Below, in pieces: positions 1 to 59,071 of a DNA stretch of 59,071 nt (position 1 is its first letter; each line of letters opens with the position of its first letter). The notes below the pieces were generated by a model, which worked only from the letters and a program-made list of their open reading frames with translations, was not told where the DNA came from and ran no database searches. This DNA comes from a virus. The stretch is taken from positions 1-59,071 of IMG/VR virus record IMGVR_UViG_3300043496_000120, one strand, 5' to 3'. A program made the position numbers and the translations under genes.

Positions 1-127
1 GTTCGAGGGCGAGCCCGCGATTGATGTCCTCCTGCGAAAAGTTCTGCTCGCGCAGCGTGCCGTTGACGTTCGTCTCTTTGATGAGGCGATCGGCACGACG
101 CGCGGCGGCATAGAACTCCCACAACGG
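1..127. repeat. terminal direct repeat identical to 58945..59071 (contig-end overlap; sequence closes into a 58,944-bp circle)
   Basis: both ends read base by base: 1-127 = 58945-59071. Confidence 0.95.
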
Positions 128-3100
128 CATGAGGCTTTCGCCGCCCGCGTCCTGGTACAGCGGACGGAACACCTCGAACATGCCTTTGCGTCCGGCCACA
201 GGTTGAAACGAGCCGTCCTTGTACTCCGGGACGCCGAGCTTCATAACGGCGGCCATGACCGCGTGACCATTCTTCGCCAGGTTGTACATCTTGTACGGCG
301 ATTCCGCGGCGTCGCCGAGGAAACCGCCGAACACTTCGCGCTCGATACGCGCGACCTGGTTGCCGGCGTCGAGCATGCCTTGCTTGAAACCTTCCCAGCC
401 ATCGCGGAAGTTCGACGCCTTCACGTCGGCGAGCCAGCGCCGCGCACGATCGCCGAGCGTCAGGTCTTCAGGCGGCGTCTTCATCGTGCGCGCCATCGAC
501 TCCTCTTGTTCCTTCGTGCCCTTCGCGCGCGCTACGCGATAGCGCACGTCGTCGACGGCGGGCTCGTCGTTCTTGTCGTAGTGGAAACCGCCATCGAGAC
601 GATGCCGCGGCGTCACCAGGTCGACCGGCGAACGCGAGTCATGCGACGGCGACAGCCCTGCGCGCTGGTGGTCGTGCGCGTTGTACATCACTTCGCGCAG
701 CTCGCTCGGCGAGTAGTCGACATCGCGACCCATCTTGCGCGACGTCGCGTTGAACCAGTCGTTGAACTTCTCGAACAGCGTCTTGCCGCGGCCGGCGGGG
801 TCGAGCTTCGCGAGATATTCTTCGGCGACGAGACGGCGGCCCTCGGGCAGTGATGCGTTCGCGCGGTAGTCGCGCGCGATCGAGGCGCGTTCCGATTTCG
901 GGATCGCGGACCATGCGCGATCGAGGAAATCGTTCAGCTCGTGCTTGTTGAAAATCTTGCGCAGACCGCCATGGCCGAGATGTTCTTCCGTCAGCGTGCG
1001 GTACAGCTCTTTCGGCGACGTCATCTTGTCGGCGATCACATGCACCTTGCCGGTGGCGCCGTCGTAGATGCCATGCACTCGGCCGCGGAACTCCGGCGAG
1101 ATGTTGTTGCGCAGTCGCGCCGGCAGGTCGGCTTCCGACTGATGCACTTCGACGTGCGTTTCAGCGGCGTGCCACTTCAGCAGTTTGACGAGGCCCTTCG
1201 CTGCCGACTTCGACATGCCTGGGCCGTCGTAGGCTACCTTCTGCCGAGGTGCGCTTTCGGATTTTTCGGCACCTTCGCCGGCCGGAACATCGGACTCGGC
1301 GCCTTTATCGCCTGGCTCGCCTTCGCCCGGACGCCCGGCATCTCCGACGTCTTCGGTTGCGGTGTCATGAACGGCTTCGGGCTCGCCTTGCGCGAGAGTT
1401 TCTTCAGCGGGAACAGGCTGCTCACGTTCGCCTCCCTCGGCGTGTGCGACTGGAACATCATGACCGAGCACGGTGACGTGCCCTTCGTTGCGGTAACCAT
1501 CGAATCCGTTCGCGACGACCTGGCGCTCGAACTCGTTGATGACGTGATCCTCGTCCATCGGCAGGCCGCGCGCTTCGACTTCAGCGCGCGCGCGCTGCAT
1601 CAGGTTGCGCGTGTCGCGGCCGAGATCGTAGACGTTGCGCAGCACCGCGCTCGCGTGACCATCGGGCACAGCCTGGCCGCGCTGCACTTCGTCGAGCACG
1701 ACGCGTCGACGCGAAGGCAGGCTCGCGTTGTCGAGCGACAGCCTGGCGAGCGGTTCGCCGTCAAAGCCGCGAGTGCCGGCCGTGACCGTCGTTCCGTCAG
1801 TCTCGGTGCTGGCGTGAACTGTGCTCGCATCCGGCTGCTGGTGACGCAGTGTGACGCGCGGCACGTTGTCTGAAACGGGTCCGGTCGCCGCCTCATCGCG
1901 GCCCGCGCCCTTCGCCCAGGTCTTGAACTCCGGCGCCGTCATGGAGCGCACGCGGCCCATGCCTTGCCAGCCCTTCGGGTATTCGCTCAGGTACGCTTGC
2001 TCGGCCGCGCGCTGGTTGCGGAATCCGAGCATGACCTTGTGCTCATCGAAGCCGCCATCGGGCTTGTGCTGGTCGACCACGAAGACCTGGCGCGTCGGAT
2101 TGTGCGGCTGGTCGCCGAGCAGAACGTCGAGATGATCGCCGTCCGCGCCGAGCGTGCCGCGAATGTAGCCGTAGTGGTGATTCATCACGCGCGAGAACGG
2201 ACGGCCGTCGAGGCCGATGCCGCTGCGCGTGGAGCCGCGCGGGTTCTCGATCGAGATGTCGAGACCCTGCGCGCGAATGTGACCCTTGCGATAGTTGCCT
2301 ACCGCGATTTTCGACGTGCTCGGCTGGCCCTCGGTTAGCGGGCTTGTCTCTGCAACGTGAGCTGCTGCATCGACTGAGAGAGGAGCCGCGCGCTGTCCGG
2401 CCGGTTCTTCTCCAGCCACTTCTCCACCGACTGCTGCTCCTCGCGTTTCATCCGCAGGAACGCGCTCGCCATTAAGCTCGGTGGCAGCGCGATCAGCTTG
2501 TTCGCCGTCACTCTCACGTCCAAGACGATACCTCGTGTTCTCTAGTCCGACATCTCCATCGGATCGCACGGCAGCTCCAGGATGTTGCCCCGGTTCCACG
2601 CGCTCTCCGCCAGCCTCAACCACATCGCCGGTCCCTCGGCCAGCTCTTTGCTCACGTAGAACGGAAGCCGTCCATACTGCTCTTTTAAGCGAGCTGCTAC
2701 CTGCTCCAGATGAGCGGATGACGGTGTCTCCCGCGATGGTGCGGAAGTCTGCGTTTGTGACGGGCTTCCCGTCCGACCACTCGAATCGTCCATTGTCAAA
2801 GTTGAAACGCATGCGCGATAGCGCGGGATGACGATCGTACACGTTCTCCATCGCCGTGTGTGCGAGCACGCCGGTATTGTGTTCAGCCGCCGCTTTGCTT
2901 CGGCCCGCCATCCATAGCCCCGTGAGGCGCTGCGTCTGAGCGGGTTCGAGATGGTGCGTCGAGCCAGTGCGGCCGGCGCTGGCCGCCATGTTCTCGGTGC
3001 GGCGGAAGTTGTTGATCGCGGTGAGGCCGCCGACGTCGGGCGATGCCTTGAAATTGTTGCGGTGTGCGAACGTGTTGATGATGTGGTAGAGGCGCGCGCC

Positions 3101-5425
3101 GTAGCCGCTGCCCTCGCGCGCGCGGCTGATGTCGAACTGCATCTTGCCGGTCTCGCCGTCGACGTGCAGCGCTGCCGGCGTCGTCGGCGCGCCGTAGCGG
3201 TCGCCGGTCGGCATGTGGATCATGTACGTCTGATCGCCGTGCTCGTTCGTTTCGCCAAGCTGCTCGACGTCGACGTCCGGCGCAATGGCCTTCGCGATGC
3301 CGGCGAGAGTCGTTTCACCTTCGGGAGCGTCGGGAAGCTGACGCGCACCAGGTGCTTGCGTCGCCTCGTGGACAGCGCGGCCGAGCGCCGGAAAGTCAGC
3401 GCTCACGCCGCTCACCGGCTGGTCGAGCTCTGGCGGCATCTCGGCGTCGCCGCTGATATGGTTTTCGATCAGCGCGGCGGGGTGAACCTCCTCCTCGCCG
3501 AGCCGGAAACGAGGCTCCGCGTCGTGGTCGCCGACGAAGCCCGGAAGATCTGATTCGTGCGGCGGCTCGGTGCCGAATACCTCCGCGCCGGCCGCTTGCT
3601 CGCTCTGCTGCTCGGCCGCGCTCGACTCCGGCGTGACGCCCATCTCGGCCGCCTCCGGGCTCGTCGCCGCCTGGTGCGCCGCGTAGGCTTCCTCGTCGCG
3701 GGTCTGGCCGGTCTTCGCGATATGGCGCAGCTCCGCGATCGTGGAGAGGCCGCTGCGCTTGCCGTCGTTGAACTCGGTGAGCGCGTAGTCGGCGCGAGCG
3801 CGTGCTTCGGGCGCGTCGCCGATGTCGTCGAGCACCTTCGAGAAGCGGGCTTCCCAGCCCGCCTGCTGCGCCGTGGCGGCCTTCGCCTCCTCGGCCGAGC
3901 CGAAACCCGCTCGCGCCGCGGTGACGTCCTCCGGCCGCTGCACGTCGGCGTGCGGGCTCACGTGCGCCGCGCCCATGCCCATGCCGAGCGCAACGTCGCT
4001 CGCGACATCGGCCGCGTCTGAGGGCGCGCCAGCGGCCGCACGCTGCGAAGCGCCGAGCGCACCCTGCGACGCACCGCCCTGGGCGAGCCGGGCCATCAGC
4101 GAGCCGGGCGCTGCCAGCGCGGGGGTGTTGAAGATGATGTTCGAGCCCAGCTCGCCAGCGAACTCCGCGCCGGATGGGGCGTCGCCCTCCTGCGCGCGCG
4201 CCAGGGCGCCTTCCGTGGTCGTGGGCACTGCCATGGCCGTCGCGCCAGGCAGGTTCGCTTCTACGGCCGCGGCGGCGGTCTGGAGCGCGGTGAGATCGGC
4301 CGGCGCCGTGAGGGTCGCCAGCTCCGGGTTGCGCGTCGCCATCGCGAGCGCGAACGCTGGAGCCATGTCGCCGAGCTTGGCGACGAGCTTCTGCGCGAAG
4401 CCCTGCGGCACCGATCCTGCGCGCAGCTCTTTCGCCTCCTCGACGTCCGGCTGCACCAGGTTGTTGAACACCCAATCCTGAGCCGCGTGTTCGTCGCCGC
4501 CGAATTCCTTCGCGATCGAATCGAACAGCATCGCGGGCGGAGCCGCGACGAGCAGGTTCACGGTCGCCGGAATTCCCATGGCGCCGGCCGCAAGATGCGT
4601 CGCGCCCATCTCGCCGAGATCAGCGGCGTCGGACGACAGGCCGCCGATCTTGTCGAGGAATGATTGATCCGGCTGCGTTTCAGGATTGTCGCCCTGCAAC
4701 GATGACGGCAGCGGGACGTCCGTGTCGTGGTGCAGATAGAAATCCGACTGCTTCGCCGGCAGCGCGTTGACGCCGTACATCTCCAGCGCGCGCGATGCGT
4801 CCTGGCCGCTGAGCTGCGCGAGAATCGAGTCGCGCTGGTACGGCAGATCGGCCGCCTCTTTCGAGATGACGTCGCGTGCGTAAGCGCGGCGCTGATCCTC
4901 GGGCATCATCTCCGGCGGCGTCGAGTCGTAGACCTGCTTGTAGCGATCCGACGCCATGAGCTTTTCATGGTTCATGCCGGCGATGATGTCGCTGGCCTTC
5001 GTGTCGGTCATCGGATCGTCAGGGCCTTGACCGGCCATTTGCGACAGCACCGCGTCGATGCGCGCCAGGCGCTTCGCCGAGGTCGCCGCTTTCGCCTTGG
5101 TCTCGACGTCGGCGTTCGGATCGCTGCCGCTGTCGATGTCAGTCAGGTACGGCGCGCGTTTCGCAATGAGGCTCGTGAGCGTCGTCGGGTCTGTCGACGG
5201 CATGCTCGGCGCTTCATCGCGCGTGCTCGCGTGATACGCCTCCGACGCGTGATCCTTGAGGTGACCCCAATACTGGCCCCACCAGTCTTCAGGGTCCGGC
5301 GTGCTTTGCGCGGCGAGCGAGTCGAGCGCGCTACCGTAGTCGGACGGCTGCTGCTGGTCGTCGTCCTGTGGCAGCGTGCCGCCGGCAAGTGCAGCGAGAG
5401 AATCGGCGTAAGAGGGAGTCGCCAT
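1..5425 (-). CDS. 5' 1,808 codons of an uninterrupted giant ORF (2,551 codons after circular closure; 3' part is 56714..58944). Virion-associated multidomain, polyvalent-type protein with an inorganic-pyrophosphatase-like domain (~1915..2300)
   Basis: ATG at 5425, directly after the stop of the upstream gene. The frame (first codon base = 1 mod 3) has no stop down to the window edge by hand translation, and the track lists no ORF in this frame, consistent with a missing stop. YGYIRGTLGADGDHLDVLLG resembles the family I pyrophosphatase core. Coding signal leaves this frame in 2335..~2715 (see findings). Confidence 0.7.
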   Translation of the reverse strand, partial: MATPSYADSLAALAGGTLPQDDDQQQPSDYGSALDSLAAQSTPDPEDWWGQYWGHLKDHASEAYHASTRDEAPSMPSTDPTTLTSLIAKRAPYLTDIDSGSDPNADVETKAKAATSAKRLARIDAVLSQMAGQGPDDPMTDTKASDIIAGMNHEKLMASDRYKQVYDSTPPEMMPEDQRRAYARDVISKEAADLPYQRDSILAQLSGQDASRALEMYGVNALPAKQSDFYLHHDTDVPLPSSLQGDNPETQPDQSFLDKIGGLSSDAADLGEMGATHLAAGAMGIPATVNLLVAAPPAMLFDSIAKEFGGDEHAAQDWVFNNLVQPDVEEAKELRAGSVPQGFAQKLVAKLGDMAPAFALAMATRNPELATLTAPADLTALQTAAAAVEANLPGATAMAVPTTTEGALARAQEGDAPSGAEFAGELGSNIIFNTPALAAPGSLMARLAQGGASQGALGASQRAAAGAPSDAADVASDVALGMGMGAAHVSPHADVQRPEDVTAARAGFGSAEEAKAATAQQAGWEARFSKVLDDIGDAPEARARADYALTEFNDGKRSGLSTIAELRHIAKTGQTRDEEAYAAHQAATSPEAAEMGVTPESSAAEQQSEQAAGAEVFGTEPPHESDLPGFVGDHDAEPRFRLGEEEVHPAALIENHISGDAEMPPELDQPVSGVSADFPALGRAVHEATQAPGARQLPDAPEGETTLAGIAKAIAPDVDVEQLGETNEHGDQTYMIHMPTGDRYGAPTTPAALHVDGETGKMQFDISRAREGSGYGARLYHIINTFAHRNNFKASPDVGGLTAINNFRRTENMAASAGRTGSTHHLEPAQTQRLTGLWMAGRSKAAAEHNTGVLAHTAMENVYDRHPALSRMRFNFDNGRFEWSDGKPVTNADFRTIAGDTVIRSSGAGSSSLKRAVWTASVLREQRAGRGTGDVVEAGGERVEPGQHPGAAVRSDGDVGLENTRYRLGRESDGEQADRAATELNGERVPADETRGAAVGGEVAGEEPAGQRAAPLSVDAAAHVAETSPLTEGQPSTSKIAVGNYRKGHIRAQGLDISIENPRGSTRSGIGLDGRPFSRVMNHHYGYIRGTLGADGDHLDVLLGDQPHNPTRQVFVVDQHKPDGGFDEHKVMLGFRNQRAAEQAYLSEYPKGWQGMGRVRSMTAPEFKTWAKGAGRDEAATGPVSDNVPRVTLRHQQPDASTVHASTETDGTTVTAGTRGFDGEPLARLSLDNASLPSRRRVVLDEVQRGQAVPDGHASAVLRNVYDLGRDTRNLMQRARAEVEARGLPMDEDHVINEFERQVVANGFDGYRNEGHVTVLGHDVPVAHAEGGEREQPVPAEETLAQGEPEAVHDTATEDVGDAGRPGEGEPGDKGAESDVPAGEGAEKSESAPRQKVAYDGPGMSKSAAKGLVKLLKWHAAETHVEVHQSEADLPARLRNNISPEFRGRVHGIYDGATGKVHVIADKMTSPKELYRTLTEEHLGHGGLRKIFNKHELNDFLDRAWSAIPKSERASIARDYRANASLPEGRRLVAEEYLAKLDPAGRGKTLFEKFNDWFNATSRKMGRDVDYSPSELREVMYNAHDHQRAGLSPSHDSRSPVDLVTPRHRLDGGFHYDKNDEPAVDDVRYRVARAKGTKEQEESMARTMKTPPEDLTLGDRARRWLADVKASNFRDGWEGFKQGMLDAGNQVARIEREVFGGFLGDAAESPYKMYNLAKNGHAVMAAVMKLGVPEYKDGSFQPVAGRKGMFEVFRPLYQDAGGESLMPLWEFYAAARRADRLIKETNVNGTLREQNFSQEDINRGLALE
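2335..2523 (-). CDS. small ORF (62 aa, helical-looking) in an alternative frame inside the giant ORF
   Basis: TTG start 7 nt after GAGG. Third-position G+C ~89% here versus ~40% in the giant-ORF frame (hand count). Confidence 0.55.
   Translation of the reverse strand: MDVRVTANKLIALPPSLMASAFLRMKREEQQSVEKWLEKNRPDSARLLSQSMQQLTLQRQAR
2542..2799 (-). CDS. ORF in an alternative frame inside the giant ORF. Only the last ~55 codons (below ~2715) look coding. It may be the C-terminus of the upstream module, reached by a +1 shift.
   Basis: ORF track. GC3 ~78% versus ~46% in the giant-ORF frame for 2545..2715. The N-terminal part is junk-like where the other frame looks coding. TAG stop at 2542. Confidence 0.45.
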   Translation of the reverse strand: MTMDDSSGRTGSPSQTQTSAPSRETPSSAHLEQVAARLKEQYGRLPFYVSKELAEGPAMWLRLAESAWNRGNILELPCDPMEMSD

Positions 5426-37446: not shown

Positions 37447-37874
37447 GGCAGCCTCCGCAGACGTTCCTTTTCGGAGCGGGCGACGAGCTTGTAGCCGCGG
37501 CGTTTCACGAGTTTGACGGCCTTGGCGAACGCGCTCAGGTCTTCGAGCTGGCGTTCGTACTCGCGCACGAGCTTGCGCGCCGCTTCGAGTTCAGAATATG
37601 AAACGGTGGTGATGCGGCACCACAGGCGGCGGATCGAGGCGTTCGCCTGGATGTTGCACAGCAGGTCGAGGTCGCCCGAGCGCACGGCGTAGACCTGGTG
37701 CGCGACGCCGGGTTCACCGCCGCTGACGACGAACGCGACGTTCGCCCTACGCGTCCCGCGGGCGTGGTTGCGCAGCCGGTACACCGCGGCGCCGAAGAAC
37801 TCGCCATCCGGCAGCGCCGGCACGCGGTACTTCGCGCGGAGCTGCTTGACCTGCACGGCGTGGATTATTTTCAT
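37443..37874 (-). CDS. hypothetical protein (143 aa, start MKIIHAVQVK)
   Basis: in-frame ATG at 37874 overlapping the upstream stop. Confidence 0.55.
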   Translation of the reverse strand: MKIIHAVQVKQLRAKYRVPALPDGEFFGAAVYRLRNHARGTRRANVAFVVSGGEPGVAHQVYAVRSGDLDLLCNIQANASIRRLWCRITTVSYSELEAARKLVREYERQLEDLSAFAKAVKLVKRRGYKLVARSEKERLRRLP

Positions 37875-38512
37875 CAGCGCACCCCCGCGAGCTTGAAATT
37901 CCCATCGGCCCCGATGATCCGCGTGTCGTCGTCGAGCCAGAACGGCAGACCGCCGATCATCACCCGCGTCCCCGCCGCCAGCGTCTCGCCCGTCATGCCC
38001 TGCGCCAGCAGTTGCTCCCGCGTGATCCGCCGCCCCGGCTCGATGCTCACCGGATTCGCGCACGCGCCCGCGTCGTCGCCGGAAGCGACAGCCTCACGCG
38101 CAGCGGGACGTCGCGTATTTTTGGTTTCGTGCCAATCCAGCTCCCGCTCAAATGCCGGAATCGTGTCCGACCGGAAGCTGAAACGGAGATTGTTGAAATC
38201 CGGGTCCACCATCCCCGCTCCCATGTGCGCCAGGAACGAGATCAGGCGATTCTCGAACTTAAGGGAAAGAGACTTTTGCAACCCTTCCTCGAAATCTGAG
38301 ACGGAGGGTGGCGAAGGGCTGGGCTCAGAAGGGGGATCGACGCCCGCCGCGGCCAGCGAATCGCGGCGGGCCTGGTCGATTTTTTCACAGCGGCGGCGCG
38401 CCTCGGCTGCTGCCCAGGCCCGGCCGGCGGCCAGCGTTTCAGAAAAGATTCTGTTCGCAAATTCTTTTGCGTCGTTGTTCGCGTCGTCGGGTGCTGCCTG
38501 GTCAAGCTCCAT
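37874..38512 (-). CDS. hypothetical protein (212 aa), first gene of the leftward block
   Basis: ORF track; GGAG RBS. Confidence 0.6.
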   Translation of the reverse strand: MELDQAAPDDANNDAKEFANRIFSETLAAGRAWAAAEARRRCEKIDQARRDSLAAAGVDPPSEPSPSPPSVSDFEEGLQKSLSLKFENRLISFLAHMGAGMVDPDFNNLRFSFRSDTIPAFERELDWHETKNTRRPAAREAVASGDDAGACANPVSIEPGRRITREQLLAQGMTGETLAAGTRVMIGGLPFWLDDDTRIIGADGNFKLAGVR

Positions 38513-41533: not shown

Positions 41534-42213
41534 AAGCACAGAGCACAATCAAAGCCCGCGCCGCCATGCGTGCGAGCATACTGCGCCAGGTAGCGGCCGC
41601 GATCAGCACAGCGCCGGAGGAATGCGACGCGGCGACGTCGGCGGCGCCTGGTCACATGGTTTTCAGTGTGGCGAGCACACGCTATCGCGTCGTCAATACG
41701 CGCGAATCTCTCCAGGCGTTTGAATCAAAGGTGAAACGCTGCGGCGGATTCGGGAAACAGCGCACAGCGGCCGAGGAGTGCGCTAGCGCGTGGAAGTCGC
41801 ACGGGCTCCGCGGCACGAGCTGCACGCCCGCGGTTAACGGGTTCGTCAGCGCCGCCGGATATTGGGACCACGACAGCGCCGACGATGCGAACGCGGCCGA
41901 GCTGGCGCGCGTCGTGCTCGGCGACAATGCGGCCGAGTGCGACATATGGCGCGGCGACGATGAAAAAACCGGGCATCTTGTCGGCGAGTGGTCCGATTGT
42001 GACGGGCTCGCGTGCGTGGTCGGAAAGTTTGATGGTCAATGGACCGTCACGGAGCCGCGCAGCGGGTTCAGCGTAGGCCGCGGCAAGACGCGCAACGCGG
42101 CTATTGAAACGGCACGCGCTGCCGTTAAAAAGCTCGGCGTTGACAAGGCCCGCGAGGCAGTAGAGCGCGCCATGGAACGCCGAGCAGTGGCACAGGCGGC
42201 CATCGCGGCATGA
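41530..42213 (+). CDS. hypothetical protein (227 aa)
   Basis: ORF track. Confidence 0.6.
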   Translation: MKAQSTIKARAAMRASILRQVAAAISTAPEECDAATSAAPGHMVFSVASTRYRVVNTRESLQAFESKVKRCGGFGKQRTAAEECASAWKSHGLRGTSCTPAVNGFVSAAGYWDHDSADDANAAELARVVLGDNAAECDIWRGDDEKTGHLVGEWSDCDGLACVVGKFDGQWTVTEPRSGFSVGRGKTRNAAIETARAAVKKLGVDKAREAVERAMERRAVAQAAIAA

Positions 42214-42293
42214 TGACTGCGGCGGCGCGTTCTCACGAGCGCGCCGCATCGGTCCGCAATCCTGCGACCGTTTCAAACCATGGAGCACGCGTT

Positions 42294-44141
42294 ATGCAAT
42301 GCGACGCCACCTATTCACCCGAAGACAATAAGTTAAGACTCTACGCGGCGACGCGCCTGGACAGCGAGACTTATTTGCGAGTCAAGGCCGCCGGTTATTC
42401 ATGGGCACCAAAACAAGAGCTTTTTGTCGCTCCCATGTGGACGCCCGAACGCGAAGACCTGGCGCTAGAACTTGCTGGCGAGATCGGCGACGAGGACACG
42501 ACACTATGCGACCGCGCCGAGGATCGCGCCGAGCGTTTCGCCGACTACAGCGACAAACGCGCAGCCGATGCGGACCGCGCACAGCGTGGCGTCGCGGCCA
42601 TCGCGGACAATATCCCGCTTGGACAGCCGATCTTAGTCGGACATCACAGCGAGCGGCACGCCAGGAAAGACGCGGAGCGGATCGAGAACGGCATGCGTAA
42701 AACCGTGCGCATGTGGGAAACGTCGATTTACTGGAAACAGCGCGCAGCCGGCGCACTCCGCGCCGCCAAGTATAAAGAGCTGCCCGCGGTCCGCGCTCGG
42801 CGCATTAAGAAAATCGAGGCGGACAAGCGCCGCCAGGAGCGGAGCCGCGCCAATAGTGAAACGAAACTAAAACTTTGGGCATCGTTAGACACGATCGAAA
42901 AGGCGCGGTTTGTGGCGTCGCGCGTTTACTTCACAGTCATCCGCGAGGGTTCGCAATCCTGGGATGCGTCCGACGTGCTAAAGCCCGATGGCGAGCGCTC
43001 CGACCGCTGCCCGGCTTGGACGCTGGAGCAGGTAAAAGAGCACGCGCACAAGGTCTTTACGCGCTGGATCGAGTATTGCGACCGCTGGATTGCGCACTAT
43101 GAAAACCGGCTGACTTACGAGCGCGCGCTACTCGGCGAAACGGGTTACATAGCGCCGCCGAAGCGTGCGACAAAGGCGCTCCTCCCGATGCTGAACTATA
43201 AACAAGAGACTTACGAAGTGCGGAGCCAGTACCGCCGCGAGAATTCGCACTATCCGCGGCACGACATGACAAAGGCCGAATATACGAAGATAAACAAGGA
43301 TTATAAAGGCTCCTGCGTTTCAGCCGATGGAACGCACCGCATTCGCTCCGCAATGATCCGCTCCGCTCTCTATGCGGTTTTCTTGACGGACTCGAAAGTA
43401 CACCCGAAGCCCGGCGCCGGACCGATCGAAGGAAAAGACGCGGAGCTAGTCGCCGCGCGCGTGAACCGTGCGGCCGAAAAGATCGAACGCACGAACGCGA
43501 ACGCGCGCGCAGTCGCCGAGCATAACCGCGCGATCACGACCGCGGCGCACGCGCTGCCGGACATGCCGCAATGCCAAGCGATCAGCCGCGAAAAGCTCGA
43601 CGCGTTGCGCCAGGCGGCCGCCGCTGGCGTGCAAGTCGTCAGCGCTCCGCAGCTATTCCCGACGCCCGCGGACCTGGCGGCGCGCATGGTAGAGCTTGCG
43701 GAGATCGAAGCCGGGCAGACCGTGCTAGAACCATCGGCGGGCACGGGTCGACTACTCGACGCGATACACGCGGCCGAGCCTGGCGCGAAGGTCTACGCGG
43801 TCGAGATCAACGCGGCGCTATGCGGCAAGCTGGACGCGTCGCGCCAGGCGGTCATATGCGGCGATTTTCTCGCGGTCCGCTCTGACATGTTCGCGTGCGG
43901 CTCGTTTGACCGGATCGTTATGAACCCGCCGTTTCAAAACGCGTCCGACGTCGCGCACATAATCCACGCGCGCACGCTGCTCGCGCCAGGCGGCCGCCTG
44001 GTCGCACTCTGCGCGAACGGATCGCGCCAGGCCGCGAAGCTCCAGCCGCTTTGCGATAGCTGGGAGGAGTTACCGCCGGGCACGTTCCAGGCGGAGGGCA
44101 CAGGCGTCCGCGTGGTACTGCTGACGATGGGCGGCGCGTAG
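42294..44141 (+). CDS. DUF3560-like domain fused to an N6-adenine DNA methyltransferase (615 aa; alternative start 42210)
   Basis: GGAG RBS before ATG 42294; SAM motif EPSAGTG and catalytic NPPF. Confidence 0.8.
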   Translation: MQCDATYSPEDNKLRLYAATRLDSETYLRVKAAGYSWAPKQELFVAPMWTPEREDLALELAGEIGDEDTTLCDRAEDRAERFADYSDKRAADADRAQRGVAAIADNIPLGQPILVGHHSERHARKDAERIENGMRKTVRMWETSIYWKQRAAGALRAAKYKELPAVRARRIKKIEADKRRQERSRANSETKLKLWASLDTIEKARFVASRVYFTVIREGSQSWDASDVLKPDGERSDRCPAWTLEQVKEHAHKVFTRWIEYCDRWIAHYENRLTYERALLGETGYIAPPKRATKALLPMLNYKQETYEVRSQYRRENSHYPRHDMTKAEYTKINKDYKGSCVSADGTHRIRSAMIRSALYAVFLTDSKVHPKPGAGPIEGKDAELVAARVNRAAEKIERTNANARAVAEHNRAITTAAHALPDMPQCQAISREKLDALRQAAAAGVQVVSAPQLFPTPADLAARMVELAEIEAGQTVLEPSAGTGRLLDAIHAAEPGAKVYAVEINAALCGKLDASRQAVICGDFLAVRSDMFACGSFDRIVMNPPFQNASDVAHIIHARTLLAPGGRLVALCANGSRQAAKLQPLCDSWEELPPGTFQAEGTGVRVVLLTMGGA

Positions 44142-56132: not shown

Positions 56133-56717
56133 ATGACAAACCCAACACCGACGCCCGCGGCGCCATCGCCGCCGAAGCCCGCCATCACGCCGGGGCCGGG
56201 CATCATCACGCAGCCGTTCAAGCCGCTGCTCGTCAATCCGTTTGGCCGTCCGTTCGCAACGCAGTGTCCGCAGCGCGACTACGGCTACGACGCGAATCAA
56301 GGTCATGGCGGATTCGGCCCGCGCATCACGCGCCAGTGCAACATCGCGCCGCAGGGTCGCGGCGGCCGCTGCACCGAGTACAGCAAGCCCGAAGGCCACA
56401 GCATCGCGCTCGCGTTCGCCGTCGCCAGCCAGAACGTCGCCGCCGATTTCTTCGAGTTCGCGAAGGACTTGAACAATTCGACGCAGCAGCCGATGGACGC
56501 GTACCTGGTCTCCGGCGACGGTCGCATCCTGGGCCACTTCACCGGCCGCGACACGGACACGGATCAGCCTCACTGCTGGTACGTCACGACGGGCGTCGTC
56601 CACAACGGCAAGACAGCAGCGCTCGCGAACGGCATCTACTTCTACGTCATCGACACGCCGGACGGCCACGCTGCAAACATGCCCGTGTGGCACAACGGGT
56701 CGAACCAGTTCAACTAG
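56133..56717 (+). CDS. hypothetical protein (194 aa), Pro-rich N-terminus
   Basis: ORF track. Confidence 0.6.
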   Translation: MTNPTPTPAAPSPPKPAITPGPGIITQPFKPLLVNPFGRPFATQCPQRDYGYDANQGHGGFGPRITRQCNIAPQGRGGRCTEYSKPEGHSIALAFAVASQNVAADFFEFAKDLNNSTQQPMDAYLVSGDGRILGHFTGRDTDTDQPHCWYVTTGVVHNGKTAALANGIYFYVIDTPDGHAANMPVWHNGSNQFN

Positions 56718-59071
56718 AACTGGTCGTGTAGAGAATCGAGGAAAGGACCGTATTGATCCAGCAGCTTGATGCGCACGTCTGTCGCGTTATCGAGCTGCTG
56801 GCGTTTTTCCTCCGGGCCGATGAACGGGTTTTGCATGATCTGTTTCTCGGCCGAGCGAATCTTCGACACGTCGCGACTCATCGCATCGAGCGTCGCGCGA
56901 TTCTGAAACGCCGGTCGACTCATCAGCTCCCGCGCGTGCTCCGTGTCTCCCTGCTGCACCGTCGACTGAAACGACTGAAACGTTGCGTCAGCCTCGGCGC
57001 GCATCTCGTACAGCTTGTCCTCGTACTTCGATCGGTCGCCAGAGTCGCTGTCGCCGGCATAGAACCGCTTCACGACCGGCATATCCTGGAGCCGCTTCGT
57101 CGGCGCGCTCGGCGCCAGGCCCGAAGCTCGGGCCAGCCAGTCGCCGGCATCGAGCGCGTAGACGCCCATGGTGCCGGCGAGCGCGCGTGTCAGGTGCTCG
57201 ACGCGCTGCGGTGAGTTCAGCCAGGGCACCTTGCTGAAGCCGCTGGCGATGGCCTTCGCGGTGACGTGCGTGAACGGCGAGTACTGCGTTTCGGGCAGCT
57301 CGTCGGCCGTCGACGCCGGCACGATCGCGCGCCAGCTCGACGTGTCCTTGTTCGCCCACTGCTCGACGCCCTGGCGGATGATCTGCGGCAAGAAGTTCAG
57401 CCGCATCTCCTCGGTCACCATCACCTGCATGGCGTGCAGCGTGTCGCGCGTCGTGTCGTTTCCGTTCAAGCGCTGCATGATCCGCTCCGGCAGCGAGCCG
57501 AAGACCACGCCGGCCTCGAACGGCTTCGGCAGCTTGAAGTGCTGATCGCCGATGAAGAAATGCCAGTAGCGATCCTTGTCGTCGTTCGACAGCCGGTTGT
57601 AGCGCGGGTCGTCCTGATTCTTCCACGCGTTCGCGATCGTCGCCGCCAGGAGAACGGAGCCGCGCAGCATGTACGACTTGAGCTGCGACGTGTCGCCGGC
57701 CTTGGCGTTCGCCACTCCCGCGCCACGCATGAAACGGTAAAGGCCCTGCATGCCCGCGTTCCAGAACGGAGCCGTGGCAGAGAGAATGCGCGCCGCGGTG
57801 TAGTCGCCGCGCATCGAGTAGTTCAAGATGTCCTGCGCCTGGTACGCCGCCTCCGCCATGGAGCCGCCGCGCGCGAGCACAGACTTCGCGATGGCGATGC
57901 GGCTCGATGCCTCGGCCGCGATGCCGACACGGTTGTAGAAGTCGAGACCCTTGCCGGCCAGGCCGATGATCGTCGTCTTGCCGTAGTTCCGTTCGAGCTG
58001 CGTGCGGACCTTCGCGCCCTGCGTTTCATAGTGCGGAGCGACGCCGACGCCGGCCATCATCAGCTTGCTTACGATCGGATCGCCGCGCACTGAGCTGATG
58101 GCGCCCTTCATGTTGTCGACGAACGGCGTGATCGGCGAGTGTGAGCCCACCCAATTTATGAGCGTGTCGCGGAACCAGGTCGCGGCCATGAAGCCTGGGT
58201 CTTTCGTCACGCCCCAGGTGACGCCGCGCTTCGCGCTCGACAGCACGCCGATCACCTTGCCGAACGAGTCGTGACCCATGGCGCCGATCGTGCGCAGCAG
58301 CAGCGGATCGGTGACGCGGTAGTACTCCTGCTTGCCGTTGCGCATGATCGGCACGACGTCGGGATCGGTCGGCGCAACGCGCTGGAAGACGGTCGACCAC
58401 TGCGCCTTCTCGGCCGGCGTGAGTCTGTCGACCTCGACCGTCGCCCAATGCTTCGACGGCTGGATGTTCGGCGACGCGTGCTGCTGGTGCAGCGCCGAGC
58501 CGGAAAAGAATCCGCCCTTCTCAAGCGCCCGCGCGAGATCGCCGACTGAAACGCTGACGGCCTTGTTCGCCATCGGCACGCGCTCCAGCACCGTACCCTC
58601 GCCCATGTCGAGCAGGCGATTCATGAACTCCTGCTTGTACGTGCGATCGAGCACGTAGGCCGTGTTCGCCAGGATGTTCTCGAACACGTTGTCCACCTTC
58701 TCCTCGCTGCCGGTGAGGCGGCGCGAGTAAATCTTTTGGTTCGCGGTGACCGATCCGCGTTTCGTCTTCGGTGCGTTCGTCTGCTCCAGCTCCTCCATCG
58801 CGCGATAGAACGGCACGTAGAAGTTCGCTTTCCACGACGCCGCCTCGGCGTCAGAGATCGCGCCGCGATCGGCGGCCAGGTCGAGCAGGTGATTGTTGAA
58901 TTCCTGGAAGTCGTCGGCCACCTTCTTGAAGACCGGATACTTCAGTTCGAGGGCGAGCCCGCGATTGATGTCCTCCTGCGAAAAGTTCTGCTCGCGCAGC
59001 GTGCCGTTGACGTTCGTCTCTTTGATGAGGCGATCGGCACGACGCGCGGCGGCATAGAACTCCCACAACGG
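56714..59071 (-). CDS. 3' part (785 codons plus stop) of the giant ORF that continues from 1..5425 across the circle junction
   Basis: track ORF 56714..59068 is open to the window edge. The frame is conserved across the junction (58944 is divisible by 3). Confidence 0.8.
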   Translation of the reverse strand, partial: PLWEFYAAARRADRLIKETNVNGTLREQNFSQEDINRGLALELKYPVFKKVADDFQEFNNHLLDLAADRGAISDAEAASWKANFYVPFYRAMEELEQTNAPKTKRGSVTANQKIYSRRLTGSEEKVDNVFENILANTAYVLDRTYKQEFMNRLLDMGEGTVLERVPMANKAVSVSVGDLARALEKGGFFSGSALHQQHASPNIQPSKHWATVEVDRLTPAEKAQWSTVFQRVAPTDPDVVPIMRNGKQEYYRVTDPLLLRTIGAMGHDSFGKVIGVLSSAKRGVTWGVTKDPGFMAATWFRDTLINWVGSHSPITPFVDNMKGAISSVRGDPIVSKLMMAGVGVAPHYETQGAKVRTQLERNYGKTTIIGLAGKGLDFYNRVGIAAEASSRIAIAKSVLARGGSMAEAAYQAQDILNYSMRGDYTAARILSATAPFWNAGMQGLYRFMRGAGVANAKAGDTSQLKSYMLRGSVLLAATIANAWKNQDDPRYNRLSNDDKDRYWHFFIGDQHFKLPKPFEAGVVFGSLPERIMQRLNGNDTTRDTLHAMQVMVTEEMRLNFLPQIIRQGVEQWANKDTSSWRAIVPASTADELPETQYSPFTHVTAKAIASGFSKVPWLNSPQRVEHLTRALAGTMGVYALDAGDWLARASGLAPSAPTKRLQDMPVVKRFYAGDSDSGDRSKYEDKLYEMRAEADATFQSFQSTVQQGDTEHARELMSRPAFQNRATLDAMSRDVSKIRSAEKQIMQNPFIGPEEKRQQLDNATDVRIKLLDQYGPFLDSLHDQF
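58945..59071. repeat. second copy of the 127-bp terminal overlap
   Basis: identical to 1..127. Confidence 0.95.

Follow-up and report, generated by a model that had tools for sequence, protein, structure and literature searches.

Small genes overprinted in the +1 frame probably explain an apparent frame jump in a giant phage gene for an LPD37-containing polyvalent protein

Results

A giant reading frame with two small ORFs behind its LPD37 domain

The DNA analysed here is IMG/VR virus record IMGVR_UViG_3300043496_000120, taken over its full length of 59,071 nucleotides (the window). Its minus strand carries a giant open reading frame (ORF; its frame is called frame 0), in which the linker between two domains, LPD37 and a phage-type inorganic pyrophosphatase (InPase), appears to change coding frame and contains two small ORFs in the +1 frame, here named ORF-A and ORF-B. 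The assembly is circular, 58,944 bp in length once an exact terminal overlap of 127 bp is discounted, and naive circularisation of the raw window creates a false frameshift and a stop (58853) within the giant ORF. With the overlap removed and the junction crossed, our recomputation agreed with the first-pass annotation that the frame is open from the ATG at 5425, through the junction, to the stop at 56716-56714, a total of 2,551 codons; there are no frame-0 stops between 5425 and 1. The giant ORF and its domains are located as follows.

1-5425, minus strand: giant ORF, frame 0, first part; ATG 5425; codons 1 to ~1808; continues across the circular junction
56714-58944, minus strand: giant ORF, frame 0, second part; ends at the stop 56716-56714; contains LPD38
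58945-59071, no strand: assembly overlap, an exact repeat of window 1-127; of assembly origin, not biology
2651-3319, minus strand: LPD37 domain, frame 0, residues 703-925; PF18853, E = 2.3e-31, profile positions 19-242 of 243
1910-2308, minus strand: InPase domain, frame 0; PF18823, E = 1.8e-50
~57071-57610, minus strand: LPD38 domain, near the C-terminus; PF18857, E = 3.8e-31

The genome encodes terminase, portal and primase-helicase proteins, and the giant gene lies on the same strand as the terminase and portal genes, downstream of both. Large polyvalent proteins of phages and conjugative elements, including P1 DarB-like proteins, were described by Iyer, Burroughs, Anand, de Souza and Aravind (2017, PMC5512222), in an account that covers domain architectures only and in which the words 'frameshift' and 'overlapping' do not occur. 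Such proteins combine at least two unrelated effector or LPD domains in one polypeptide; LPD37, InPase and LPD38 are found together here and, on this domain content, the giant ORF is predicted to encode a single large polyvalent protein (Iyer-Aravind type). The location of the gene, downstream of the head genes and on the same strand, is consistent with packaging of the giant protein in the virion and its delivery to the host, which in this class often follows proteolytic processing.

The linker behind LPD37 and its immediate surroundings contain the following features.

2542-2793, minus strand: ORF-A, putative overprinted +1 gene; ATG 2793 (alternative TTG 2799) to TAG 2544-2542; 83 amino acids (aa)
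2593-2718, minus strand: conserved core of ORF-A, residues 26-67; predicted three-helix bundle; motif HLExVAxxLKExxxxxPFYA…G..(Y/F)W…S..N
2651-2793, minus strand: proposed dual-coding stretch, with the LPD37 tail (frame 0) over the N-terminal half of ORF-A (+1)
2681-2689, minus strand: CTT AAA AGA (CTTAAAAGA), candidate slip site; Leu-Lys-Arg in frame 0, contributing Leu-Lys-Glu in +1
2522-2557, minus strand: frame-0 motif GDVGLENTRYRL, between the two +1 ORFs; the window version of a family-wide '(L)LYS' motif
2531-2534, minus strand: GAGG Shine-Dalgarno (SD) sequence, 7 nt upstream of the ORF-B start
2335-2523, minus strand: ORF-B, second +1 ORF; TTG 2523 to TAA 2337-2335; 62 aa

The TAG, GAGG, TTG and TAA of this list, as well as the frame-0 GTG codons at 2419 and 2188, are all present where the first-pass annotation had placed them. 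ORF-B would occupy the part of the linker left by ORF-A and end just before InPase, the Pfam match of which begins 10 codons past the TAA of ORF-B. No promoter-like or terminator-like sites were found in 2200-3200.

The codon-position signal changes frame across the linker in two distant genomes

Over the whole giant gene, the G+C content at third codon positions (GC3) of frame 0 has a mean of 0.82 (standard deviation 0.12, 40-codon windows). From 2715 to 2335 it is 0.41 (52/126), and the +1 frame reaches 0.77 (44/57) in 2715-2545 and 0.89 (55/62) in 2523-2338; these measurements bear out the drop in frame 0, and the values of about 78% and 89% for the +1 frame, that the first-pass annotation had estimated by hand. 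Likewise, a codon-usage log-likelihood trained on the other genes of the window favours the +1 frame from ~2725 to ~2455. Where the +1 frame dominates, the third positions of frame 0 would come to resemble second positions (~41% G+C). At the same time, frame-0 first positions in the zone have a G+C content of 0.89-0.92 because they are the G+C-rich third positions of the +1 frame, so that stops, which begin with T, are rare in frame 0. This depletion keeps the giant frame open through both small genes and permits a spacer rich in Gly, Ala, Arg and Glu. Suppression of stops by the composition of the +1 frame is thus the mechanical link between the missing stop of the upstream module and the missing start of the downstream one. 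That both are missing, as the first-pass annotation had pointed out, is true; the puzzle it saw there dissolves, since the two absences simply reflect a single polypeptide.

The same layout is found in L001, an IMG/VR contig from a different sample with ~57% protein identity to the window protein. Frame 0 of L001 is uninterrupted, two +1 ORFs lie at matching places, and the codon bias passes through the same sequence as in the window, from frame 0 to +1, back to 0, again to +1 and finally to 0. Frame-0 GC3 of L001 is high in the LPD37 core (0.98) and in InPase (0.94) and low in the zones of ORF-A (0.46) and ORF-B (0.55), and in the 19 codons that separate the two +1 ORFs it is back to 0.95. 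The lowest nucleotide divergence between the window and L001 occurs in the stretch 2651-2793, where the LPD37 tail and ORF-A overlap.

Frame-0 GC3 also dips, to 0.54, in window 1234-1510 (giant residues 1305-1397), where there is a +1 ORF of 88 aa (ATG 1500 to 1234) that is Ser/Pro/Lys-rich and of low complexity. The acidic linker that carries this dip is not present in L001, and the dip is probably a compositional effect of that linker and not a gene. Just upstream of LPD37, in a single 120-nt window (3281-3400), GC3 is higher in the +1 frame (0.82) than in frame 0 (0.62), and the codon-usage scan raised no flag there.

ORF-A belongs to a family that recurs at the LPD37 tail

We queried 1.84 billion representative proteins with the window +1 peptides in a full HMMER search and obtained, as matches to ORF-A, four called small proteins with lengths of 68-92 aa. 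The first (P0121) is the ORF-A of L001 itself; another (P0122) is the product of a free-standing 71-aa gene on a 3.4-Mb bacterial contig, ~100 nt from a tRNA-Thr gene; and the other two (P0123 and P0124) come from short contigs where the neighbouring frame is LPD37-tail-like and the body of the LPD37 domain is missing. The same search returned two long tandem-repeat proteins (P0120 and P0125) with short ORF-A-like words, such as 'ERHGRLPF', which appear spurious and were discarded.

Erwinia phage PEp14 contains a giant gene with only ~27% identity in LPD37, and its +1 frame encodes …AAQRLKEVFSSIPFHALKAARNPDYWRDFSASAVNF*, a peptide that clearly belongs to the ORF-A family (NC_016767.1, region 37733-37957; the peptides include EVFSSIPFHALK and NPDYWR). 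With a PEp14-type query, tblastn also detected ORF-A in the +1 frame of Erwinia phages Stean and Pavtok. In the records of these three phages ORF-A lies under the annotated giant coding sequence, without a feature of its own. We then ran a hidden Markov model (HMM) of the ORF-A core (46 residues) on the three forward frames of 23 LPD37 loci from IMG/VR, and obtained significant matches (E-values from 8e-12 to 5e-4) in L033, L034, L035/36, L037, L041, L042, L043 and L045, all of them in the +1 frame at the LPD37 tail. Counting close relatives once, ORF-A is found in some ten lineages, the loci of which are not all phylogenetically independent. Comparison of homologous loci, the check suggested by the first-pass annotation, thus shows that the frame break recurs. 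Conversely, five LPD37 loci lack ORF-A (L029, L031, L038, L044 and L039); in these the spacer is shorter and the +1 frame encodes no peptide like ORF-A, with +1 stops in four of them. Conservation of frame 0 alone is therefore insufficient to generate the peptide. A further LPD37 locus, L030, gave no significant match, yet its +1 frame is open at ~2126-2300 and reads …RLFRERCSRNPFSTS…W..W…, which may be a very divergent ORF-A.

Homologues also occur away from complete LPD37 genes. A standalone homologue is found at 6001-6216 of L022 and L023, bacterial contigs of 3.4 Mb and 70% G+C, with no phage genes nearby and with the LPD37-like frame degraded; it is flanked by an EF-hand gene and a SPOR-domain gene, with a tRNA-Thr(TGT) at 6318-6393 of L022. 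The standalone bacterial copy retains similarity in the +1 frame (28.9) and has lost it in frame 0 (9.8). Short metagenomic contigs carry other homologues (L024, 485-763; L025, 57-299; L026, 334-576), and likeness to the LPD37 tail and to the '(L)LYS' motif persists in the -1 frame relative to them. In L025 a TGA breaks this LPD37-like frame exactly at the ATG of ORF-A, and in L024 the frame extends into a downstream gene that encodes a signal peptide. Together, these comparisons indicate that ORF-A is a conserved family able to exist without LPD37.

Other searches were less productive. Comparison by tblastn of the window ORF-A peptide and of an L041-type ORF-A with cultured phages gave no matches, and neither did word-indexed protein searches with the window +1 peptides or with an LPD37-plus-linker query; the same kind of search with an LPD37-to-InPase query retrieved short InPase proteins only, with no giant relatives, and scans of metagenomes and genomes found only InPase-level relatives without the LPD37/ORF layout. 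No Pfam family was detected for ORF-A or ORF-B at E-values up to 0.01, the best profile matches of the ORF-A family were not significant (Pfam, 0.068; PHROGs, 0.076; PDB, 0.15), and Foldseek comparisons with the PDB gave E-values above 1 for both models. As predicted by AlphaFold2 from an alignment of five sequences, ORF-A residues 26-67 form a three-helix bundle, with a predicted local distance difference test (pLDDT) score above 90 for residues 31-60, and the N-terminal 25 residues, which overlie the best-conserved part of the LPD37 tail, are disordered.

Each frame is conserved beyond what the other imposes

To evaluate the +1 frame, the frame-0 protein was kept fixed, synonymous codons were redrawn from the usage of each locus and the resulting +1 frame was scored by HMM. 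The observed +1 score exceeded all of 500 nulls in each of the 11 loci, with values such as 77.6 against 2.4 ± 4.8, or 44.9 against 1.3 ± 5.8. There was no such excess in the most conserved part of LPD37, used as a control, where 29-168 of 300 nulls reached the observed value. In the reverse test, with the +1 peptide fixed, codons resampled and frame 0 scored against an HMM of the LPD37 tail, the observed score exceeded 300 out of 300 nulls in 10 loci. Additionally, the ORF-A zone is open in the +1 frame in 14/14 loci, as compared with +1 stops in 11/14 for a conserved LPD37 control segment, and the mean over lineage pairs is higher for the +1 frame than for frame 0 both in the overlap (31.5 vs 25.7) and beyond it (28.7 vs 20.6). 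A scan of synonymous-site conservation between PEp14 and Pavtok was uninformative, the pair being too similar and too mosaic, and whole-linker BLASTP of the window against L001, run per frame, did not discriminate (49.7 vs 44.3 bits). As judged from resampling in both directions, the ORF-A region is dual-coding, each frame being conserved beyond what the other imposes, and that ORF-A is a coding sequence is well supported and very probable.

The first-pass annotation had placed the end of the frame-0 coding signal at 2715. This is contradicted by the LPD37 profile match, which continues in frame 0 to residue 925, at window 2651. The match scores 113.7 bits with the frame-0 tail, 100.6 when cut at residue 903 and 101.3 as a chimera with the +1 frame; the frame-0 tail hence contributes 13 bits and the +1 continuation none. 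Likewise, in tblastn comparisons with the DarB-like proteins of Erwinia phages the frame-0 match extends to residue 924 (query residue 224). In all aligned loci the ORF-A stop lies between two frame-0 motifs, 'G.S.LKRA..T.SLLR' on its upstream side and '(L)LYS' downstream, and the giant frame contains no stops in 11/11 loci. Frame 0 is therefore conserved beside, between and past the +1 ORFs, which leads us to conclude that the main product reads straight through. It is predicted to be a single polypeptide with no frame shift, and the 2,551-codon frame would be translated whole, in the order N-terminal region, LPD37, linker, InPase, further sequence and LPD38. Of the explanations offered in the first-pass annotation, the one that fits these data is that of genes overprinted within a true 2,551-aa protein, with frame 0 conserved around the +1 ORFs and ORF-A conserved beyond frame 0.

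The frame-0 motif that follows LPD37, in its full form '(L/I)(L)YS(R)', is found 35-45 residues past the tail of this domain in every LPD37 locus, whether ORF-A is present or not. Its window form is TRYRL (aligned loci L027-L045), located past the end of the Pfam LPD37 model, and the motif may mark the true end of the domain or a processing site.

How the +1 frame may be entered

The start of ORF-A within the conserved LPD37 tail would place the DNA there under selection in two frames; ORF-A would then run into a frame-0 spacer under little constraint, where the +1 frame dominates codon usage. The most serious alternative to a separate start is programmed +1 frameshifting at CTT AAA AGA or nearby, which would yield a product of ~960 aa ending at the TAG at 2542, with ORF-A as a trans-frame extension. 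The first-pass annotation had proposed this site, and it is indeed present at 2689-2681. We first discounted it because L001 lacks it, and had to revise this argument, since the nonamer is near-invariant at the nucleotide level across the wider family, an A4 run being followed by AGA; we now attribute its conservation to dual coding. Frame 0 requires LKR, from the LKRA of the LPD37 tail, and the +1 frame requires LKE, from helix 1 of ORF-A; the rare AGA is kept because a CGN codon would change the +1 Lys, and this joint demand is by itself enough to force cTT AAA AGA G. The variants found are AAG AGA in L035, L045 and L037, ATT AAG CGA in L001 and CAA GGC in the standalone L022. The A4 run is thus broken in four of the 13 LPD37-linked loci (L001, L035, L045 and L037). 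In the last three of these, the change from AAA to AAG is synonymous in frame 0 and replaces Lys by Arg in the +1 frame; in L001 the +1 Lys is replaced by Ser.

The position of the constraint also argues against entry at this site. The 10 +1 codons upstream of it, which belong to the predicted helix 1, are conserved beyond frame 0 in 11/11 loci (z from 1.1 to 3.0), and in eight of the 11 at most 35 of 1000 nulls reach the observed value; the +1 frame is therefore entered further upstream. Moreover, LPD37 homology continues in frame 0 past the site, which is at odds with the ~960-aa product as the main outcome, and in L022 and L025, where the LPD37 frame is missing or broken by a stop, the ORF-A homologues have an ATG of their own. 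In each of the 14 loci examined there is an in-frame ATG 1-50 codons upstream of the ORF-A core, with no intervening stop, and this ATG is often created from the A+T-rich 'RYNFD / NG / DG' codons of LPD37; Pavtok, checked separately, has only GTG or TTG. Frameshifting gains some credit from the fact that most loci, the window included, have at best a weak SD ahead of the candidate ORF-A starts, and from the variable position of the ATG, with Pavtok lacking that of PEp14; PEp14 and Pavtok have in common a GGAG-N7-GTG further upstream. In all, frameshifting is unlikely as the main mechanism, and a minor trans-frame product could still be made alongside straight read-through. Internal initiation is the best-supported route for expression of ORF-A, as far as can be told from the arrangement of its starts. 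Both small ORFs would then be translated by internal initiation on the mRNA of the giant gene, ORF-A from an ATG within A+T-rich sequence that is preceded by a weak SD at best, and ORF-B from an SD-TTG.

ORF-B and the possibility of chance ORFs

A second alternative is that there is no gene in the +1 frame at all, the shift being a by-product of a disordered linker rich in Gly, Ala, Arg and Glu, and the +1 ORFs occurring by chance in G+C-rich DNA. Chance +1 ORFs of 100-200 codons do occur in these genes, where the stop frequency is ~0.025 per codon, and the weaker dip at 1234-1510 is accompanied by a +1 ORF that is not conserved in L001. For ORF-A this explanation is excluded by the family-wide conservation of the +1 frame, which frame 0 cannot account for, and by the standalone homologue in which the frame-0 signal is gone.

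The case of ORF-B is less clear, because it has no homologues beyond the window and L001, either by word-indexed search, by HMMER protein search or in six-frame translations of the fetched loci. Nevertheless, the ORF at the corresponding position in L001 is open and has its own SD, GGAGGAGG, 6 nt before a GTG start. The SD and start are good in both genomes and occupy non-homologous aligned positions, whereas their stops, TAA in the window and TGA in L001, align at one and the same codon, and the difference between them is synonymous in frame 0. Indels between the two ORFs are multiples of three, and the Smith-Waterman score is higher for the +1 frame (76) than for frame 0 (69), as compared with control regions, where the +1 score is about half that of frame 0. 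AlphaFold2, run on the single sequence, predicts a four-helix fold with a pLDDT of 91 for ORF-B, a model made without an off-frame control. On these comparisons ORF-B is somewhat more likely to be a real gene than a chance ORF. For the two ORFs taken together, we consider the absence of any +1 gene improbable.

A probable single polypeptide, and no assembly artefact

A third alternative holds that the locus consists of separate genes placed head to tail, namely an LPD37 gene, ORF-A, ORF-B and an InPase gene, and that frame 0 is open only through composition. The composition argument is valid as such, given the G+C content of frame-0 first positions in the zone, and standalone InPase proteins of 190-600 aa are common. 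Against it, in both the window and L001 a stop is lacking for the LPD37 module and a usable start for the InPase module, and there are selected frame-0 motifs within the zone. The frame-0 peptide GDV.L..TRYRL is common to the window and L001 despite eight synonymous changes, and AAH..TSPL is a further motif of this kind; these add to the '(L)LYS' that follows LPD37 in frame 0 in all LPD37 loci. Separate genes are therefore very improbable, and a single giant polypeptide with genes overprinted on it remains the better description.

Finally, the idea that two compensating single-base errors disguise ordinary separate genes or a single frame, raised in the first-pass annotation and in principle plausible for a metagenome-style assembly with a k-mer overlap, is refuted to the point of being scarcely credible, because the independent contig L001 has an identical layout and an uninterrupted frame 0 at only ~57% protein identity, ORF-A and LPD37 overlap with an unchanged frame offset in about ten lineages, to which cultured Erwinia phages contribute three complete genomes, and the +1 frame holds two stops, so that no pair of indels yields one continuous frame.

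A possible second polyvalent-type fragment in the genome

Elsewhere in the window, on the strand opposite to the giant gene (42210-44141, plus strand), there is a gene for a 643-aa protein, the C-terminal part of which matches internal segments of PHROG profiles built from methyltransferase-type proteins of 1,200-3,900 aa. From these matches, it may be a second polyvalent-type fragment in the same genome.

Discussion

Our results indicate that the apparent frame jump behind LPD37 is best explained by two small genes overprinted in the +1 frame within the giant gene, a reading to which we assign a probability of about 0.78. Several points weigh against it. As the dip at 1234-1510 is compositional, GC3 shifts alone are no proof of overprinting. 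The loci that make up the ORF-A lineages are partly related, the starts of ORF-A are poorly marked and move from locus to locus, and translation of both small ORFs is a prediction from their sequences. ORF-B, besides being known from two genomes only and having a model that lacks an off-frame control, shows substitution rates between the window and L001 that do not differ among the three codon positions; resampling of this pair is also non-discriminating for ORF-B, since the controls exceed the nulls too, and we have not used it as evidence.

Tailed dsDNA phages are generally regarded as having few overlapping genes, and genes nested within larger ones are passed over by annotation pipelines. 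ORF-A represents a family of ~50-90 aa in the second frame of the LPD37 module, present in diverged lineages and in cultured phages, so that annotations of LPD37 giant genes would be missing at least one gene. The pair formed by ORF-A and LPD37 thus offers a clean natural case of long-lived dual coding, and the ORF-A family a testable entry into an uncharacterised domain of the polyvalent, DarB-like anti-defence proteins of phages. From a practical point of view, comparative resampling can tell frame jumps due to overprinting in G+C-rich giant genes from frameshifting and from assembly error.

The tight coupling of ORF-A to LPD37, its small helical fold and the existence of solitary chromosomal copies lead us to speculate, at long odds, that ORF-A might partner the LPD37 effector module specifically, as its inhibitor (immunity protein) or its chaperone. 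If so, overprinting on the LPD37 tail would prevent the separation of the two by recombination and would ensure their co-expression, and the solitary copies in chromosomes, such as that beside tRNA-Thr, would be orphan antidotes captured by the host that blunt the phage effector. This would represent a new logic of anti-phage defence and a first functional handle on LPD37. A literature search for 'LPD37' found nothing relevant, and a full-text search combining 'polyvalent protein' and 'overlapping gene' retrieved no relevant account, as judged from titles and abstracts.

The giant protein agrees with the large polyvalent proteins of PMC5512222 in joining LPD37, InPase and LPD38 in one polypeptide of 2,551 aa, and differs from that account in the +1 genes at the LPD37 boundary, which are not described there. 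If ORF-A were a partner of LPD37, the arrangement would be like the effector-immunity pairs of polymorphic toxins, by functional analogy only, in that a small helical protein is linked to one effector domain, and the solitary ORF-A copies in bacterial chromosomes without the effector would be like orphan immunity genes; in contrast to those pairs, the toxicity of LPD37 and its binding by ORF-A are conjecture here. Immunity genes, moreover, usually lie behind the toxin gene, with no overprinting.

Programmed +1 frameshift sites are exemplified by CUU-UGA-C in prfB and CUU-AGG-C in Ty1. The nonamer CUU AAA AGA is superficially like these sites, having a re-pairable CUU or AAA beside a rare Arg codon. 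Unlike them, its zero frame still encodes conserved protein downstream, its +1 frame is conserved upstream and the slippery run is not kept in all lineages.

A further parallel is found in the spanin genes Rz and Rz1 of phage lambda, where Rz1 is embedded in the +1 frame of Rz and a single mRNA serves for the translation of both; the arrangement differs from phage to phage, the two genes being embedded, overlapped or separate. The Rz1 protein, a lipoprotein that carries a signal sequence of its own, acts in lysis through physical cooperation with Rz. Both cases concern tailed dsDNA phages and a small +1 gene that is completely enclosed by a larger one. Unlike Rz1, ORF-A and ORF-B have no signal peptide, and they show no relation to Rz/Rz1 in sequence or predicted fold; the gene that encloses them, in turn, encodes a polyvalent effector protein of virion type. 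The arrangement is thus one of overprinted phage genes, a known class, and stands out within it for an unusually deep conservation that is tied to one effector module.

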